This document shows, piece after piece, positions 35,738 through 43,686 of a stretch of DNA of 64,000 bases. The translations under genes and the position numbers were made by a program. Position 1 is the stretch's first letter. Each line of letters opens with the position of its first letter. The DNA is taken from assembly GCA_031261455.1 (NCBI GenBank), contig JAISJP010000003.1, positions 4,024-68,023 on the forward strand, given 5' to 3'. The stretch comes from Propionibacteriaceae bacterium. Its GTDB lineage: Bacteria; Actinomycetota; Actinomycetes; Propionibacteriales; Propionibacteriaceae. The notes under the pieces are model-generated. The model was given only the letters and a program-made list of their open reading frames with translations. It did not search any database and was not told where the DNA came from.

Positions 35738-35852
35738 ATGGTTCACACTGAACGACAGGTGGCGAAACGACGGAAAATGAGGTGTCCAAACGACGGGTTT
35801 TGAGGTGGCGAAACGACGGAAAATGAGGTGTCCAAACGACGGATGGGCTAGT
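35738..35852 (+). repeat. four tandem 23-bp units (two 46-bp doublets) plus a degenerate fifth unit, ending 9 nt before the ATPase ATG
   Basis: ggcgaaacgacggaaaatgaggt / gtccaaacgacgggttttgaggt / ggcgaaacgacggaaaatgaggt / gtccaaacgacggatgggctagt at 35761, 35784, 35807, 35830. Solo copy of ggcgaaacgacgga at 39769..39782. Confidence 0.9.
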
Positions 35853-35860
35853 ATTGTGGC

Positions 35861-37129
35861 ATGTCAAGTTATCTTTCCCGGCTCATAGAACGGCAGTTGA
35901 GCGAACTCCTCTCCGAGTTGCCCGCAATCGCTATTGATGGCGCCAAGGGAGTGGGCAAGACCTCTACGGCGCAGCGGTTCGCCAAGAGCACTTTTCGGCT
36001 AGATGATAATCGAGTCGCCGAGGCGGTACAGGCTCGCCCGGAGGAGCTTCGAGATGCGGCACCACCAGTCTTGTTGGATGAGTGGCAACGCCTCCCTCTG
36101 GTGTGGGACGTGGTGCGTCGTTCAGTAGACGACGACCGCGTGGCAGGCCGTTTCATCCTCACCGGCAGTGCGGTACCGGCACAGACACCAGTACACTCGG
36201 GGGCTGGTCGGATCATTCGACTACGGATGCGACCACTGTCCCTGGCAGAACGATCCCTCGTTGAGCCGACGGTGTCATTGGCTGGTTTGCTGGGCGGGCA
36301 GAGTGAAGTCTCCGGGTCTACAAGCTTCGACTTGCGGGGCTACGTGGATGAAATGCTGCGCTCCGGTTTCCCGGGCCTGCGAGATGGGTCATGGCGAGCA
36401 ATCAGAAACGCGTTGGACAGCTACGTTGACAACATCGTTCAGCGCCAGTTCGCCGAACAAGGCGTTTCGGTGCGCAAACCCGAGACTCTCCGCGCATGGC
36501 TAACTGCGTACGCTGCCGCCACAGGTGGAACCGCGAACTACACCGAGATTCTAGACGCTGCCACGGCAGGACAACCTGACAAACCATCCAAGGATCAGAC
36601 GCTTGTCTATCGAGACGCATTAGCGGACTCTTGGTTAACTGACGAGGTGGCTCCATGGCTTCCCGTCGGTAGTTCACTGCCGACGCTCACGCGGTCGCCT
36701 AAACACTTCTTAGCCGATCCAGCAATCGCGGCACGACTCCTAGACCTCAGCCATGAAAGTCTCTTGAGCGGCGACACCCCCGAACCGCTTGGGCCACAAC
36801 AAAGCACGCTCCTTGGCAGATTCTTTGAGGCACTCGTGGGTCAGAGCCTACAGGTATACGCCGCTGTCAACGAGGCCAAACTCAGTCATCTGCGACTAAA
36901 GGAAGGCAAACGAGAGATTGATTTCGTCATTTCCCGCGGCAGGGACGTTGTCGCGGTCGAGGTCAAGCTCAATCCCACTGTGGACGGTTGGGACGTACGA
37001 CACCTCAACTGGCTCGCAGAGAAGTTCGCCACCTACCACGTCACCAAAATACTCATCACCCCAGGACCCTACGCATACACCCGAAGCGATGGAGTACACG
37101 TTATCCCCGCAGTGTTGCTGGGAGCATAG
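35861..37129 (+). CDS. AAA+ ATPase (AAA_14) with C-terminal DUF4143 / PD-(D/E)xK-like domain
   Basis: Walker A DGAKGVGKTS, Walker B VLLDEWQ. C-terminal EIDFVISRGRDVVAVEVK signature. No SD; TAGTAT 6 nt upstream of the ATG suggests a leaderless mRNA. Confidence 0.8.
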   Translation: MSSYLSRLIERQLSELLSELPAIAIDGAKGVGKTSTAQRFAKSTFRLDDNRVAEAVQARPEELRDAAPPVLLDEWQRLPLVWDVVRRSVDDDRVAGRFILTGSAVPAQTPVHSGAGRIIRLRMRPLSLAERSLVEPTVSLAGLLGGQSEVSGSTSFDLRGYVDEMLRSGFPGLRDGSWRAIRNALDSYVDNIVQRQFAEQGVSVRKPETLRAWLTAYAAATGGTANYTEILDAATAGQPDKPSKDQTLVYRDALADSWLTDEVAPWLPVGSSLPTLTRSPKHFLADPAIAARLLDLSHESLLSGDTPEPLGPQQSTLLGRFFEALVGQSLQVYAAVNEAKLSHLRLKEGKREIDFVISRGRDVVAVEVKLNPTVDGWDVRHLNWLAEKFATYHVTKILITPGPYAYTRSDGVHVIPAVLLGA

Positions 37130-38296
37130 CTACCTATTGCCTTTGGCTCGGTTGTGAGTGACGCACAACATTTGACAGTTGGCTAGGTCGGTCGCACCTC
37201 CATGTGACCAAGCAGTAACGTGGTCTGCCTCCATCTCGTCAGCCTTGTAGATGCGAGTGATGTTTGCGGTGTTGCTTGTGGCACACAACGGACAGTTCGA
37301 CGTGCATTGCCTATTTGCATCTTCAGTTTGGCGCTGGTAGGCCAGCCCCTTGGTCGTGCCATCAAATATGCGAATTGCTAGCAACTCCGGATGCTGTTTG
37401 CCGCCAAGGAGATACTCGTAGATGCCTTTGTGGCTCTTGACTGCCTGATCCCCCATCAGGCGGCGTAGGTCCGATTCCAATTCGGCAGGATCAAACGCGC
37501 AACTGTGGTAGGTCTCATAGAGACGCCCCCACTCCAAACCACGCATCTCCTTGTCTGGAGGTGCGGCGAATACGCTCCCAATCCAGTCAATGACAGACGT
37601 AAAATACGTCTTCAACTCGTTGGTGCTGTCATCCTGACGGTGAAGCGCCATGTAAGCATCAATCGACGTGCCGTGTGCCCCAGCGAGCCACCCTAGCGCG
37701 ACCTCCAACACCTGCTGCCGTTTCGCGTCCCCGTTGATGTAAGCAGACCACTTTTGCAGATTCGCGTTGTGGGAGTTAGAGAACTCGGCCTTCGCCAGCG
37801 TAACGAAAGGCCCTGAGTAGATCGCGTTTAACAGCTCCTGATTGTTCAGTGGCACCCCGGCAATATTGATGGTCTTGAACCACTCCTTAATCTCCTTCTC
37901 CGTACCTGAGCATTCATAGACGAGCAGTTCGCTATCTAGGATCATGGCCTGTTCCTCAAGCGGTAGCGACGAAAATGTCTGTTCCCTGTCATCCACGCGG
38001 ATCGCAAACTTGCCGGTAACAAACCTGCCCACGGACGTAATACGCTGTTGCCCATCCAGCACCTCAAGACAAGAGCCGGCATCATTGAAGTAGATCAGTC
38101 CCAGCGGATAGCCCTTCAACAACGAATCAATGACAGCCACATCCTTCTTGCCATCGTTGTAGATGTAGTTGCGTTGGTACTCCGGTTGAATGACAAGCTT
38201 GCCAGAAAGGCCGTAAAGCCCCTTGCTCTCAAACTCGTTGTAAAAGAACCCCGCCACAACCTCACGTACCGTGTAATGCTTCAGTTCAGTCTTCAC
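37130..38296 (-). CDS. DUF262 (ParB-like/GmrS-like) domain protein fused to a zinc-finger HNH nuclease
   Basis: IQPEYQRNY and [12 protein letters not shown]262 motifs. C-terminal CPLC...[33 protein letters not shown] start overlaps the methylase stop by 11 nt. Confidence 0.8.
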
Positions 38297-39407
38297 TGGT
38301 TACCTTCCGCTGGATGAAGATTCGCTTGTACGCTCGAATGCCCCGCACCAGTGGTTGCGCGACTTGACTGTCGGAATCCCACAGGCCGTTGGCAAATCCC
38401 TTTCCTTCGGACTCGGTTGCGCCGACAATCTCGAATTGTCCGGGATTGTACTTGTCAAGAAATGTGATGGGAACTCCCATCGTCCCATCATGATCGTCCG
38501 GGATGGCGTCAACAAATGGAACTTCAATAGCGTCGTAATTGTCGTAGCACACGTACCCAATTCCACGTACCTCTTTGTGCTTGCTGAATCTAATATTGTC
38601 CTCCATTGTCATCAGTTGCAGCGGTTCGTGACGACGGCCATGCTCAATGTTGGTGTACCAACACGAGTTTCCCAGCCGGGTGTAGTCATGCTTGTCGTCA
38701 CTGGGGTACCCGAGTCTGGCTGCTTTTCCTCGATCGCTGTCTGCAATGAGTGTGCCTTTGGGGACTCCGAATACCATATCCGTTGTGTTCCCGGTGGCGC
38801 CCTTCCACAACAAGTTCTCTCTAATTAGAGGGAAGACTTCTTTGTAAGTCACAGCGTTGCTATTGCCAATGGCGGCAAACTGCTTATCACCCTGTACGAG
38901 CCATGCGATAAACTCACGGAAAAGACTAAATGGCGGATTCGTGATGACGATATCAGCCTCGTCTCGGAGTCCGGTAACTTCGGCGCTCCGGAAATCGCCG
39001 TCGCCGTCCAAGTATCTCCACTGGAAGTCATCAATGTCAATGGCTCCATCGGCGCTGATATCCTTCGACTCCAACACAAAGAGCTTGCCTTTTGTGCGGT
39101 CTTTGCTCTTATCAAACTGGGGATCAGCAGACCGCGTCGGCATGTAGAAGGTGCTGTGGTTGCTATTGGGCGCGTAACTGGTGGAGATTAGCTTTCTAAG
39201 TCCAAAATCAACGAAATGAAGTGCGAAAAACTTGGTGAAATTGCTCCACTCCGGATCATCACACGGCAGCAGAATCACCTTGCCGCGAAAGACATCTGGG
39301 TCATACTCAAGATAGGCGTTCATCTCCCGCTCGATGTCGGCCCACTGCGTGTAAAACTCGTCGTTCTTGGCCTTGGCCGCGCGCCCAAGCGCGTCGTTGC
39401 CCGCCAT
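38286..39407 (-). CDS. EcoRI-family adenine-specific DNA methyltransferase
   Basis: N-terminal NDEFYTQ motif and ITNPPFSLF (NPPF) catalytic motif. GGGAG SD 7 nt upstream of the ATG. Confidence 0.8.
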
Positions 39408-39487
39408 CAGTGGACTCCCGCACCAATGCGAGAAAGATAGCTCCCCCAGGCCTGAAGCCTAGGCCGTCGCTCTAAACTAGGAGAGAG

Positions 39488-39567
39488 GCCTGCTGCCTGC
39501 TGCCTGCTGCCTGCTGCCTGCTGCCTGCTGCCTGCTGCCTGCTGCCTGCTGCCTGCTGCCTGCTGCC
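39488..39567 (-). repeat. perfect heptanucleotide tandem repeat, GCCTGCT x11 plus 3 nt (AGCAGGC on the methylase strand)
   Basis: Counted unit by unit from 39488 to 39564, with partial gcc at 39565..39567. Lies 81-160 nt upstream of the methylase ATG. Confidence 0.95.
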
Positions 39568-39822
39568 ATAATGATGTATCCCTTGTTGATAATCAGGTGT
39601 TCACCCGTGGTACACAGCCTAACGGGAGTGTTTCACAAACCCAACGCCAACTCGCCATCAACGAAGAACACGGTTGCCAACCTCAACAACAAGAGGACAA
39701 TGGAGCTCCACTCAACAAGAGCATCTACACTCGAGTGGCTTCAGTGCCTTGAGACAGCACACAGAGATGGCGAAACGACGGATTTGGCGTCTCTTACCTA
39801 GCCGTGGGCGATTTCCCCTGTG

Positions 39823-40929
39823 TTACGCGGTTGCGGGTTCGCGACGCTCGCCCGCGGCGATTTGGGTGCCGGGTTTCAGGTATAGGAACGGGCCGACCCG
39901 CGAACCCTCACCGATTACGGCCAGTTCGGCGTGGACGCGGATTACGCGGGCGTTGGCACCGACTTCGCAGTCTTTCAGGGTGGTGCTGGGGCCGATGGTG
40001 GCGCCCGATTCGATGCTGGTGACGCCGTGGAGTTCGACGCCAGGCAGCAGGGTGACGTCTTGACCCAGGTCCACGTCGGCGTCAATCCACGTGGCGGCGG
40101 GGTCGATGACGGTGACGCCGGCGAGCATCCAGCGCGTGACAATTCTGCGGTTGTACTCGGCAGTTAGCGCGGCCAACTGAACGCGGTCGTTGACGCCTTC
40201 GGTCTGCCAAACGTCGGCGGTGACTACCGCACCTACCCGTCCGGAGGCCTCACGAGCAAGGGCGATAGCGTCGGTCAGGTAGAGCTGACCTTGGTCGTTG
40301 TTGGTGGTCAACTGACCTAATGAACTGCGCAGTGTGGGGATGTCGAAGACGTAGACCCCGGCGTTGATCTCGGTGATTTGCAGCTCGTCTGGGGTAGCAT
40401 CACGATGTTCGACGATGCGGGCCACCTGCGCAGGGTCGGCAGCGTCACGAACAACACGGCCATAGCCGGAGGGGTTGTCGGCGTGAGCACTCAGCAGGGT
40501 TGCGGCATTGGCGTAGTCGCGATGAGCAGCCACCAACTCTTCGAGAGTTTCAGGCTCAAGTAGGGGGACATCGGCATAGGTGACAGCGACCTCGCCGGTC
40601 AGGTCGGACGGCAGGGCAGCAAGCGCGGTGCGGACGGCGTCGCCGGTGCCCAACAACTCCTGTTGGACGACGGTCTGGGCGTAGGGCGCTATGCGCGACA
40701 GCTCGGTCAGCACCGACTCGCGTTCATGCCCGACCACAACCACTAGGTGTTCGGGGCGTAGCGGCTCCACGGCGTTGATCGCGTGTGCCAGCAACGTCTT
40801 GCCGCCGATGGTGTGCAACAACTTGGACTTGGCGGACTTCATGCGCGTGCCCGCGCCAGCGGCCAAAACTATGACTGCAGCAACCCTATCGCTCATACTT
40901 CCAATTCTAGTCGGATATGGGCCGCTCAT
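39823..40929 (-). CDS. glmU: GlmU (UDP-GlcNAc diphosphorylase / GlcN-1-P acetyltransferase), apparently 3'-truncated within the LbH acetyltransferase domain
   Basis: LAAGAGTRMKS uridyltransferase N-terminus. Hexapeptide repeats run to GPFLYLKPGTQIAAGE, then 7 unrelated residues and a stop. About 100+ C-terminal residues expected from the E. coli and Mtb proteins are absent. Confidence 0.75.
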   Translation of the reverse strand: MSGPYPTRIGSMSDRVAAVIVLAAGAGTRMKSAKSKLLHTIGGKTLLAHAINAVEPLRPEHLVVVVGHERESVLTELSRIAPYAQTVVQQELLGTGDAVRTALAALPSDLTGEVAVTYADVPLLEPETLEELVAAHRDYANAATLLSAHADNPSGYGRVVRDAADPAQVARIVEHRDATPDELQITEINAGVYVFDIPTLRSSLGQLTTNNDQGQLYLTDAIALAREASGRVGAVVTADVWQTEGVNDRVQLAALTAEYNRRIVTRWMLAGVTVIDPAATWIDADVDLGQDVTLLPGVELHGVTSIESGATIGPSTTLKDCEVGANARVIRVHAELAVIGEGSRVGPFLYLKPGTQIAAGERREPATA

Positions 40930-41081: not shown

Positions 41082-42308
41082 CTACTCCGCCTCTTCCTGT
41101 CCGACCGCCTCGGCTTGAGCCTCAAGCAGGGCGCAGGCCTCGCGGGCGATGGCGAGCGCCTCGCGCTGCTGGATCATCAGCACCGGGATAGCAGAGTGCG
41201 GCGTGGAGATGATGCGGGAACGCACGTCGGAGTGCGTCTTCTCGTTGATGTTTTGGTCTAGGTCTACACCGATCACTTCAAGACGGTCGCAGACGGCGCG
41301 ACGCAAGCGGTGGTCTTGCTCGCCCGCAGTGCCGGTGAACGAGATGGCTTGCGCCCCCCCCAGCACCACGTGGTAGGCGGCGATCAGCGAGACGATGCGA
41401 TGCACCAGGATGCCCAGCCCAACGCGAGCTTGCTGGTCCCCCTCGTCAGCGGCAGCCCAGACGTCAACCATGCTCTTCTGGCCAGTCATGCCAAACAGGC
41501 CGGAGCCCTCCCGCAGCAGTTGGTCAAACTCCTCAATGCTCATGCCCGTTTTCTCGCACACGTAACGGTGGATGCCGGGGTCGATGGAGCCGCTAACGGT
41601 GCGTCCGGGCAGGCCGTCGATGGGAGTGATGCCGGTGGACACCTCGATGGGACGCCCGGAATCGATAGCCGAGATGGACGCCCATCGTCCCAAATACACG
41701 ACGATCTGTTTCAGTTCGTGCCGGCCCAGCAGCAACGACACCCGGTTGGCGACGTAAGAGTGAGTGGGACCGTGGAACCCGACCTTGCGCAGTCTCAGCT
41801 TGTCTGACAGTTCGGCAGGCAGGGCGTAGCCAGCGGTGGCGTCCGGCAGTTGCGAGAAGAAAGACGTATCGAACACCGCGACGTTGGGCAGGTTGGGCAG
41901 CAACTTCTCGGCGGCGCGGATCCCGTCGATGGTGGCGGGGTTGTGATCGGGAGCCAGCAGCGCGAACTCGTTGATGGCGTCGATAACCTCGTCATCAACA
42001 AGCCTGGACTCGGTGAACCGGTCGGCAGTGTGGACAACGCGGTGGGCGACGGCGGCAAGCGAGCTGACCGGCACTCCGTTGGTCTCCATCATGCGCAGTG
42101 CCGACGCCAGCGCGGCCTCAACCGTCGGGATGCTCAGGTCTGGGGTGTAGACCTTGCCCTCGGTGAGTTCGTGCCAGATCTCGCCGGTACCGTCCTCGCC
42201 GATGCCCCGCACCTTGCCTTGGGAGATCGGGTCCTTCGCCCCGGCTTCAAACACGTAGTACTTCAGCGCGCTCTTTGAAGCCTTCAGTACCAAAATGAGG
42301 CCAATCAT
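41082..42308 (-). CDS. acetate/propionate kinase family protein (divergent motifs)
   Basis: ORF 41082..42524, likely start ATG 42308 with AGGAGA SD. AHRVVH, APDHNP, VAVFDTSF, VGFHGPTHSY and FTGTAGEQ resemble AckA signatures, but NAGSSS is replaced by LKASKS. Confidence 0.65.
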   Translation of the reverse strand: MIGLILVLKASKSALKYYVFEAGAKDPISQGKVRGIGEDGTGEIWHELTEGKVYTPDLSIPTVEAALASALRMMETNGVPVSSLAAVAHRVVHTADRFTESRLVDDEVIDAINEFALLAPDHNPATIDGIRAAEKLLPNLPNVAVFDTSFFSQLPDATAGYALPAELSDKLRLRKVGFHGPTHSYVANRVSLLLGRHELKQIVVYLGRWASISAIDSGRPIEVSTGITPIDGLPGRTVSGSIDPGIHRYVCEKTGMSIEEFDQLLREGSGLFGMTGQKSMVDVWAAADEGDQQARVGLGILVHRIVSLIAAYHVVLGGAQAISFTGTAGEQDHRLRRAVCDRLEVIGVDLDQNINEKTHSDVRSRIISTPHSAIPVLMIQQREALAIAREACALLEAQAEAVGQEEAE

Positions 42309-42375
42309 GTGTTTCGTTTCTCCTAAAGTCCGGTCAGCAGGGGGTCCTGATGCTAGGCAGTATTTGTTGGTCGGC

Positions 42376-43686
42376 TCAGCCGAAAACAAAGAACCTGACA
42401 TAGATGTAAACCCACGAGATTGCGACCGTGAGCAGGGTGATGGGAATGCCGTATTTGGCAAACTTCCAGAAGCTGATTTTCTCGCCTGCGGACGCGGCGA
42501 GGCCGAGCACGACGACATTGGCACCGGCGGCGACAGCGGTCATGTTGCCGCCGAGGTCTGCGCCAAACACGAAAGCCCACCACAGCGGGCTGTCCGCGCC
42601 GACGTGCGGGGTGGCGGCCACCATCTCGGCCACAATGTTAACCATGGCGGTGGTGTAAGGAATATTGTCAACAACGGCACCGATGATCGCCGAGCCAAAC
42701 AGCAGTCCGGTGACACCGCCAAGTTCGTTGCCGTCCATCAGTTCGGCGGCAAACTCGCCCATCTGTCCGATGACGCCAACTTCAACTAACACTCCCACAA
42801 GCACAAACAGTGACATAAAGAAGGCCAGCGTGGTCCATTCCACCTCGGCAAGGAACTGCTTGGGTTTGGTCTGGCTGACCAGCACCATGAACCCGGCGCC
42901 GAGCATGGCAACGATGGACGGGTCCAGTGGCACAAACTCGTGCATGCCGAACGTAACCATAACTATTGCCAACACGATGAGGCAGCGCACCAGCAGGGCG
43001 ACGCTGGGGATAGCGTCTTTGGGATCGAGGTCGCCAAGGGCCTCGTCAACGTCAATCTTCTTGTGCATCTGCTTGCGGAACACGACGATTAGTACCAGTA
43101 CTAGTACCACGAATAGCAACAGCGTCAGCGGAAGCGAGTAGACCAGAAAGTCTGTGAACGACAGGTCGGCGCGGGAGGCGATGATCAGGTTGGGCGGGTC
43201 ACCGATGAGGGTGGACGTGCCGCCGATGTTTGCCGCGAAGATTAGACCCATAAGGTAAGGCATGGGCGAGATGGACAGCCGTTGACACACAGACAGGGTC
43301 ACGGGCGCGACGAGCAGCACCACTGTCACGTTGTCCAGAATTGGAGAAAACAGTGCGGTGACGCTCATGAGCACGATTAGCAACCGAACCGGGCTGCCTT
43401 TGGACACCCGCGCGGCCCACAAGGCGATGAACTCGAACAGGCCGGTATGGCGCAACACCGAGACCACGATCATCATGCCGAACAGCAGGAAGATGACGCC
43501 CCAGTCAACGCCGGTGTGTTCACTGAAGAACGCGGTGTCGGCGGAAACCAACGGCCCCTCTTCGCGGAACAGGCCAAGGATTGCCATCGCGGCCACGCCA
43601 CCAAGCGCGGCGGCCACGCGGTGGACCTTTTCGGACGCGATCAGGGCGTAGGTGATGGCAAACACGATCAGCGCAATGCTGGTCAT
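42376..43686 (-). CDS. ArsB/NhaD-superfamily (YbiR-like) anion permease
   Basis: ORF 42376..43803, likely start ATG 43686 (MTSIALIVFAITYALIASEKVHRV). Polytopic membrane protein. Confidence 0.7.
   Translation of the reverse strand: MTSIALIVFAITYALIASEKVHRVAAALGGVAAMAILGLFREEGPLVSADTAFFSEHTGVDWGVIFLLFGMMIVVSVLRHTGLFEFIALWAARVSKGSPVRLLIVLMSVTALFSPILDNVTVVLLVAPVTLSVCQRLSISPMPYLMGLIFAANIGGTSTLIGDPPNLIIASRADLSFTDFLVYSLPLTLLLFVVLVLVLIVVFRKQMHKKIDVDEALGDLDPKDAIPSVALLVRCLIVLAIVMVTFGMHEFVPLDPSIVAMLGAGFMVLVSQTKPKQFLAEVEWTTLAFFMSLFVLVGVLVEVGVIGQMGEFAAELMDGNELGGVTGLLFGSAIIGAVVDNIPYTTAMVNIVAEMVAATPHVGADSPLWWAFVFGADLGGNMTAVAAGANVVVLGLAASAGEKISFWKFAKYGIPITLLTVAISWVYIYVRFFVFG

Follow-up and report, generated by a model that had tools for sequence, protein, structure and literature searches.

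Does a long tandem repeat in front of a restriction-modification (R-M) operon act as a genetic switch and, if it does, by what route? The question is raised by a 64,000-nucleotide stretch of contig JAISJP010000003.1 from the Propionibacteriaceae bacterium assembly GCA_031261455.1 (hereafter the window, meaning the whole of the stretch that was analysed), in which a perfect heptanucleotide tract lies inside a short leader open reading frame (ORF) upstream of an EcoRI-family methylase gene. An original prediction held that slippage of the tract could toggle translational coupling between the leader and the methylase. We conclude that the tract is probably a simple sequence repeat (SSR) of high mutability, and the Type II R-M operon behind it a functional contingency locus; the more specific mechanism, frame-dependent translational coupling via the short leader ORF, is in our judgement evenly balanced between being right and being wrong.

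The heptanucleotide tract and its leader ORF

The operon is read from the minus strand, and the elements that bear on the question are the following, in window coordinates.

39584..39579, minus strand: Shine-Dalgarno (SD)-like AAGGGA, 9 nt 5' of the leader ATG, from direct reading of the sequence
39488..39567, minus strand: perfect heptanucleotide tract, (GCCTGCT)x11.4 on the plus strand, (GGCAGCA)x11 plus GGC in the sense orientation
39569..39477, minus strand: leader ORF with 11 units as assembled, 30 codons, M(AAGSRQQ)n...RPLS, ending at TAG 39479..39477
39479..39472, minus strand: two stops in different frames directly 3' of the tract, TAGTTTAG; TAG 39479..39477 and TAG 39474..39472
39409..39407, minus strand: third-frame stop TGA (n = 10, 13 or 7), with one base in common with the methylase ATG 39407..39405 (TGATG)
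38286..39407, minus strand: Type II N6-adenine methyltransferase of the EcoRI family, 373 aa (Pfam PF13651, E = 2.5e-114; PADLOC MTase_II)
37130..38296, minus strand: restriction nuclease, 388 aa, DUF262/GmrSD_N plus HNH (Pfam; PADLOC REase_II, full-length match)

Tandem Repeats Finder (TRF) places the tract at 39488..39567 with a period of 7, 11.4 copies, 100% matches, no indels and a score of 160, in agreement with the eleven perfect GCCTGCT units plus 3 nt originally described; this is the top TRF score and the sole long short-unit repeat of the 64-kb window. A perfect repeat of this length with so short a unit is beyond chance, as expected of an SSR contingency locus. On the minus strand the leader ATG (39569..39567) opens directly into the tract, its G being the first base of the repeat, with AAGGGA 9 nt upstream, and the product would be M(AAGSRQQ)n. 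Reading of the sequence finds no stop codon within the tract in any sense-strand frame. Both points had been anticipated. The sense strand 3' of the tract runs CTCTCTCC-TAG-TT-TAG... and later GCGGGAGTCCACTGATGGCG, of which the final ATG is the methylase start, 80 nt downstream of the end of the tract.

The consequences of a change in copy number were followed with a script that rebuilt the locus at copy numbers of 6 to 16 and translated each version from the leader ATG. With 11, 8 or 14 units translation ends at TAG 39479..39477, 72 nt 5' of the methylase ATG, and with 12 or 9 units it ends at TAG 39474..39472; the remaining frame runs on to the TGA that overlaps the methylase start. An upstream stop that overlaps or lies near a downstream start, the arrangement on which translational coupling depends, is found in one of the three window frames. 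The simulation reproduces the three outcomes of the original prediction, for the present 11 units, for the loss of one or gain of two, and for the gain of one. In the proposed model the assembled 11-unit state would be the uncoupled, low state.

An N-terminally extended methylase that contains the tract was considered and rejected, as the methylase frame is interrupted by stops, at 39479 and again downstream, and offers no in-frame start from the last of them to 39407.

The methylase-nuclease operon

Judged from its domains and gene order, the operon is a conserved two-gene Type II R-M system composed of an EcoRI-family methylase and a DUF262-HNH nuclease: the two genes are separate, of matching families and in one operon. 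More than 8000 homologues of the methylase are on record. The GTG start of the nuclease overlaps the methylase 3' end by 11 nt, and in 152 of 157 homologous loci a nuclease lies directly 3' of the methylase on the same strand, so that the operon named in the original prediction is both real and conserved; the actinobacterial host that it supposed agrees with the labelling of the source protein as Propionibacteriaceae. In the window and in all seven relatives with inspected coordinates the nuclease start overlaps the methylase end or is at most 3 nt away, and translational coupling appears from these gene boundaries to be usual in the methylase-nuclease operon.

A second leader-type tract in a Propionivibrio genome

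For comparison we assembled 80 genome loci and 80 metagenome loci from relatives 53-78% identical (913 kb) and scanned them for short repeats. Perfect short repeats are very rare in these 160 loci, perfect tracts of 80-120 nt among them, and the repeats that are present cluster on the methylase gene or its leader. One further leader-type tract was found in the 160 loci, at locus L053, with none in three plasmid loci and none in 20 contigs of two relatives.

L053 belongs to a metagenome-assembled genome (MAG) of Propionivibrio, a betaproteobacterium, assembled from nanopore reads, in which both methylase and nuclease have 66% identity with their counterparts in the window. A perfect (ACGC)x30 tract ends 45 nt 5' of its methylase ATG, and another ATG stands 13 nt before the tract. 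When copy number is varied in the same manner, two frames end at a TAA directly 3' of the tract, TAAAGCGTAA, and the third, which is that of the assembled n = 30, stays open as far as a TGA that precedes the methylase ATG by 4 nt. This third frame crosses a 13-bp perfect hairpin, CACAUCACUCC...GGAGUGAUGUG, that buries GGAG and adjoins the ATG; the hairpin has a folding energy of -22.2 kcal/mol (z = -5.3), and none of 200 shuffles was as good. The flanking genes of L053 are lipA and an AP endonuclease. Because repeat unit, host phylum and flanking genes are all unrelated, the two leaders point to convergence and not to shared descent. As assembled, L053 (n = 30) would be in the coupled state and the window (n = 11) in the uncoupled state, and both states would be expected of a switching population.

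To estimate how often this anatomy occurs, we took 145 homologues that have no upstream tract and examined each upstream offset between 40 and 100 nt. We defined the three-frame pattern as two frames that terminate no more than 20 nt from the end of the tract and a third that remains open until a stop located at -12..+2 relative to the methylase ATG. Both tract-bearing loci fit, as do 123 of 8845 control positions (1.4%), a figure that is supportive and no formal test because the pattern was defined after the data had been seen.

Other repeats and upstream frames among relatives

The same methylase family carries repeats of other kinds. At one conserved position inside the methylase, approximately nt +970 to +1090 of its longer (458-478 aa) versions, (AG/GA)7-15 tracts occur in 10 loci (L012, L051, L054, L063, L081, L106, L114, L115, L121 and L129), which are labelled Rothia, Pauljensenia, Microbacteriaceae MAG, Bacteroidia MAG, Gastranaerophilales MAG and five metagenome contigs. 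Alleles 98-99% identical over 2.6 kb have a tract of 15 or 21 nt and a full ORF of 476-478 aa; a 92%-identical allele has a 19-nt tract and an ORF shortened to 359 aa and separated from the nuclease start. Since in-frame and out-of-frame alleles are found at 92-99% identity, the family carries length-polymorphic tracts. A frameshift at this intragenic tract might mainly turn the nuclease off and leave the methylase core intact. A G10 homopolymer about 20 codons before a methylase stop (L160, 4100-4109) is a third kind of repeat in the family.

From these observations we suggest, tentatively and at somewhat less than an even chance, that the leader-ORF SSR is a frame-counting switch, in which slippage would select the leader frame and a single frame would unmask and couple to the operon start; that this design has had two or more independent origins, with a 7-nt unit in an actinobacterium and a 4-nt unit in a betaproteobacterium; and that the widespread EcoRI-like methylase/DUF262-HNH family is recurrently phase-variable.

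In many relatives a long open frame ends in ATGA where the methylase begins. We considered whether such frames mark a conserved, coupled upstream gene as a feature of the family and rejected the idea; the translations resemble GC-rich noise, with the exception of a helix-turn-helix (HTH) protein in L112. Contigs that end just 5' of the methylase do not end in repeats.

Among relatives that share the window's MAGN N-terminus, two contigs (L087, 1-83; L105, 1-29) have a methylase ATG directly preceded by GCGAGCAGGGCAGGCAGC, which looks like a degenerate form of AGCAGGC units, perhaps a remnant of the heptamer tract or its precursor. Two further relatives, P0042 (contigs L176-L185) and P0008 (contigs L166-L175), differ in context. 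P0042 has an orphan methylase followed by a 62-aa ORF, beside a recA-like gene and without a nuclease; P0008 has an ArdA anti-restriction gene and an HTH gene as neighbours, and a large number of its Logan contigs break at one and the same position, 155 nt into the nuclease.

Ribosome-binding site, leader folding and promoter scans

39434..39415, minus strand: 8-bp hairpin UUCUCGCA-UUGG-UGCGGGAG, whose 3' arm holds the entire methylase SD GGGAG (39419..39415)

The methylase SD, whose presence had been predicted, stands 7 nt 5' of the ATG. The coupled frame (n = 10, 13, 7) is the sole leader frame that would be translated through the window hairpin. The hairpin has an energy of -9.1 kcal/mol with z = -1.17, and 27 of 200 shuffles are equally good. 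The predicted unpaired probability of the methylase ribosome-binding site (RBS) is 0.29 in the window and 0.28 in L053, with a family median of 0.46. The 216-nt leader as a whole, tract included, folds no better than expected (z = +1.2; 183 of 200 shuffles fold as well), a long hairpin involving the repeat is not supported, and no downstream region is complementary to the repeat. No Rfam family was found in the leader, so no competing RNA element.

A scan of the window found no sigma-70-like promoter on the methylase strand 5' of the leader; transcription could therefore start inside or after the tract. The terminator scan of the methylase strand of the window gave no matches. In L053 the promoter scan found none, and the only terminator-like matches are on the opposite strand, inside the tract.

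These results bear on a different account of the locus, in which the length of a tract in the 5' untranslated region (UTR), or between promoter and gene, tunes transcription, mRNA structure or processing irrespective of frame, and the leader ORF is incidental. Such a rheostat operates at hmw1A, the best-studied heptanucleotide SSR 5' of a gene (PMC12721329), and it would suit the failure to place a promoter 5' of the leader ATG and the want of an SD before the L053 leader. By eye, AT-rich hexamers abut both tracts (CATTAT in the window, AATAAT in L053) and could be -10 boxes, with a transcript that starts inside the tract. However, with an ordinary fold of the window leader and no complement to the repeat, a hairpin of the hmw type is unsupported. 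The rheostat also leaves unexplained the ATG before both tracts, the two-frame stops after them and the third frame that ends at the methylase start, and units of 7 and 4 nt, both non-multiples of three, fit a frame-based switch. We consider this account unlikely.

The scans also bear on the idea that the tract serves a gene on the plus strand, a 76-aa ORF at 39571..39801 whose ATG is 3 nt past the tract. This frame begins right at the tract end, and the plus strand has one sigma-70-like site (39674-39701); the site, however, falls within the ORF, 3' of the start codon. Neither Pfam nor PADLOC nor NCBIfam gave a match to the ORF, which extends antisense into the 3' end of glmU and has no counterpart in L053; a role for it is highly improbable.

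The proposed mechanism and its strength

Frame-dependent coupling through the leader ORF builds on what was observed, namely the anatomy, the frames, the L053 analogue and the polymorphic tracts of the family, and supposes in addition that the leader is transcribed, that its tract slips and that translation responds. Ribosomes would initiate at the ATG at 39569 and traverse the tract, in which all three frames are open, and gain or loss of 7-nt units by replication slippage would shift them among the three frames. In two frames they would terminate at TAG 39479 or TAG 39474, stops that are present about 70 nt before the methylase. In the third (n = 10, 13, 7 and so on) they would cross the SD hairpin and end at the TGA that overlaps the methylase ATG; unmasking of the SD together with termination-reinitiation would be expected to raise methylase translation, and nuclease translation would follow by way of its overlapping start.

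Several observations weigh against this mechanism. The window hairpin is weak, the window ranks only 20th of 147 in RBS occlusion, and the methylase is already equipped with a good SD. No promoter-like site precedes the leader, and the leader ATG of L053 lacks a recognisable SD. A leader-type tract is present in only 2 of about 180 loci, the definition of the three-frame pattern was post hoc, and in this GC-rich family 20 of 147 loci have an open frame of at least 61 codons that ends where the methylase begins. The 11-unit copy number is that of the MAG assembly and no other, and is uncertain to that extent. Look-ups with the exact proteins of methylase, nuclease and glmU showed no length variation, the source contig being the only match besides a second assembly that breaks within the tract. 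There is also a physiological difficulty: a Type II system with a separate nuclease that is turned on in an unmethylated cell risks self-restriction, which argues for a graded effect.

Set against these points, the claim that slippage toggles coupling holds up in part. It is favoured by the anatomy, the L053 analogue, the 1.4% rarity of the pattern and the repeats of the family, and it is weakened by the hairpin (z = -1.17), the missing promoter site and the methylase's own SD. Because the methylase keeps this SD and the hairpin is weak, a high/low switch is to be expected rather than a strictly on/off one, and a graded switch would lessen the problem of self-restriction.

The tract in independent assemblies and the genomic island

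35861..37129, plus strand: AAA_14/DUF4143 ATPase, convergent, outside the conserved unit

The identical methylase is on record from only the Propionibacteriaceae bacterium MAG (an 80-kb contig) and the Logan assembly of run SRR14710919 (L001), which has the same methylase, nuclease and ATPase as the window. The L001 contig stops exactly 30 nt into the tract, the expected behaviour of a k=31 graph at a tandem repeat. Because this independent assembly has identical genes and 30 nt of the repeat, the tract exists in the reads. An exact look-up of the Propionivibrio methylase likewise found no strain-level tract variation.

Comparison of the 157 homologous loci shows the ATPase gene at the locus in the window and L001 only. 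Between prs and glmU, methylase, nuclease and ATPase together make up a low-GC island (0.51-0.58 against 0.61-0.65), and the tract is about 200 nt inside this island and not at its junction.

The assembly and the island are also the ground for supposing that the tract has no regulatory role, being either a neutral unstable microsatellite on a horizontally acquired island or a repeat whose length or placement was distorted by MAG assembly. The source is a MAG contig, the truncated glmU at the island edge points to a disturbed history or a possible chimera, so few of the homologous loci have such a leader tract, and the locus is represented by one full tract length. The tract is present, however, in an independent assembly of raw reads and lies about 200 nt inside an island that has copies of a 19-nt motif on either side; perfect tracts as long as 80-120 nt hardly ever occur in these loci, those found being on the methylase gene or its leader, and the convergent anatomy of L053 would be hard to obtain by chance. 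Neutrality or misassembly therefore seems to us decidedly unlikely.

The 19-nt motif, GAG(G/A)TGGCGAAACGACGGA, occurs in four tandem copies with a 23-nt period at 35756-35843, just 5' of the AAA_14/DUF4143 gene, and a fifth copy, in the same orientation and 95% identical, is at 39764-39782, about 200 nt past the tract. The sites flank the approximately 4-kb low-GC island on both sides, and the motif core AAACGACGG is found nowhere else in the 64 kb (expected 0.57). The copies may be attachment-like island ends or operator sites.

The glmU gene (39823-40929, minus strand) is truncated: GlmU models are matched to approximately position 347 of 488 with a score under the family cut-off, and its last 8 codons diverge at about 39845. 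No remnant of the absent ~140 aa was found on either side of the island. The truncation is either a deletion that accompanied island insertion or the mark of a chimeric MAG contig. Further along, the longest version of an acetate kinase ORF (41082-42524, minus strand) has 480 aa, and its Pfam match begins only at residue 76; it has either a long N-terminal extension or a true start further downstream.

Comparison with known systems

Phase variation driven by SSRs is well documented for the R-M methyltransferases of Type I, Type III and Type IIG (Campylobacter) systems, in which the tracts are intragenic (PMC5909438, PMC7383803, PMC4889913), and SSRs have been surveyed more generally (PMC2651432). 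The phasevarions of the mod, hsdM/hsdS and Type IIG kinds resemble the window in the presence of a long perfect repeat, of a unit that is not a multiple of three, with an R-M N6-adenine methyltransferase, and in the stochastic, reversible switching of methylation and restriction that is expected. In phasevarions the tract is in the methyltransferase ORF and a frameshift truncates the protein, whereas the window tract is 80 nt 5' of the methylase and cannot frameshift it, because methylase-frame stops lie between the tract and the start codon. With its tract outside the methyltransferase ORF the window does not belong to the mod/hsdM type. It also differs from the phasevarion types in being a Type II system, with an EcoRI-family methylase and a separate DUF262-HNH nuclease, and in its hosts, uncultured Propionibacteriaceae and Propionivibrio MAGs; the papers found on phase-variable methyltransferases concern, by title and abstract, host-adapted pathogens and commensals.

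The (ATCTTTC)n tract of H. influenzae hmw1A is transcribed in the 5' UTR and forms a long hairpin that RNase III cleaves, with lower expression at higher n (PMC12721329). In hmw1A/hmw2A as in the window, a heptanucleotide tract of at least 11 units separates the promoter region from the start codon; an RNA hairpin takes part in the control of hmw and would do so in the window. The hmw mechanism is frame-independent and its repeats pair with a G-rich arm, whereas no repeat-containing hairpin is predicted in the window, where repeats in a long stable hairpin with a downstream arm find no support (z = +1.2); unlike hmw, the window has a frame-based anatomy, with an ATG in front of the tract and, behind it, a separate stop for each of the three frames. 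The window also falls outside the promoter-spacer class, because an 80-nt tract cannot fit a spacer of 16-18 nt and there is no sigma-70-like site on the methylase strand. At M. catarrhalis uspA2, too, tract length tunes expression independently of frame.

In H. influenzae lic1 the (CAAT)n tract lies in the gene's own 5' coding region (licA), and the frames choose among in-frame ATGs. There, and by prediction in the window, the three frames of a 5' tract lead to three translational states, but at lic1 the protein is the same, with no separate leader ORF and no coupling.

For an SSR in a leader or upstream ORF that acts by translational coupling, no precedent was found in the literature searched, which takes in few of the subscription journals, so that a precedent may exist; in a 2025 review of phase variation the words 'leader', 'translational coupling' and 'untranslated' are absent. 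If the reading is right, phase variation would proceed by a route not found in that literature, through an SSR inside an upstream ORF and translational coupling, and a classical two-gene Type II system would be switched in uncultured Propionibacteriaceae and Propionivibrio MAGs. If confirmed, it would mean that SSR surveys confined to ORFs or promoters overlook such switches. It suggests that methylation state may vary from cell to cell in lineages known only from MAGs, and it raises the puzzle of how cells survive when a separate restriction nuclease turns on. For 10, 11 and 12 units the coupling and rheostat models make opposite predictions.

The closest mechanistic parallels are the erm leader peptides, in which a hairpin that sequesters an SD is opened by upstream translation, and reinitiation at overlapping genes (ATGA or TGATG). 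Classical coupling and the window share a short upstream ORF that crosses a hairpin around the SD, a weak one in the window, and, in the coupled frame, a stop that overlaps or abuts the downstream ATG. They differ in the input: in the classical cases this is a drug-stalled ribosome, or coupling is constitutive, whereas in the window it would be a heritable, reversible change in the length of the tract.

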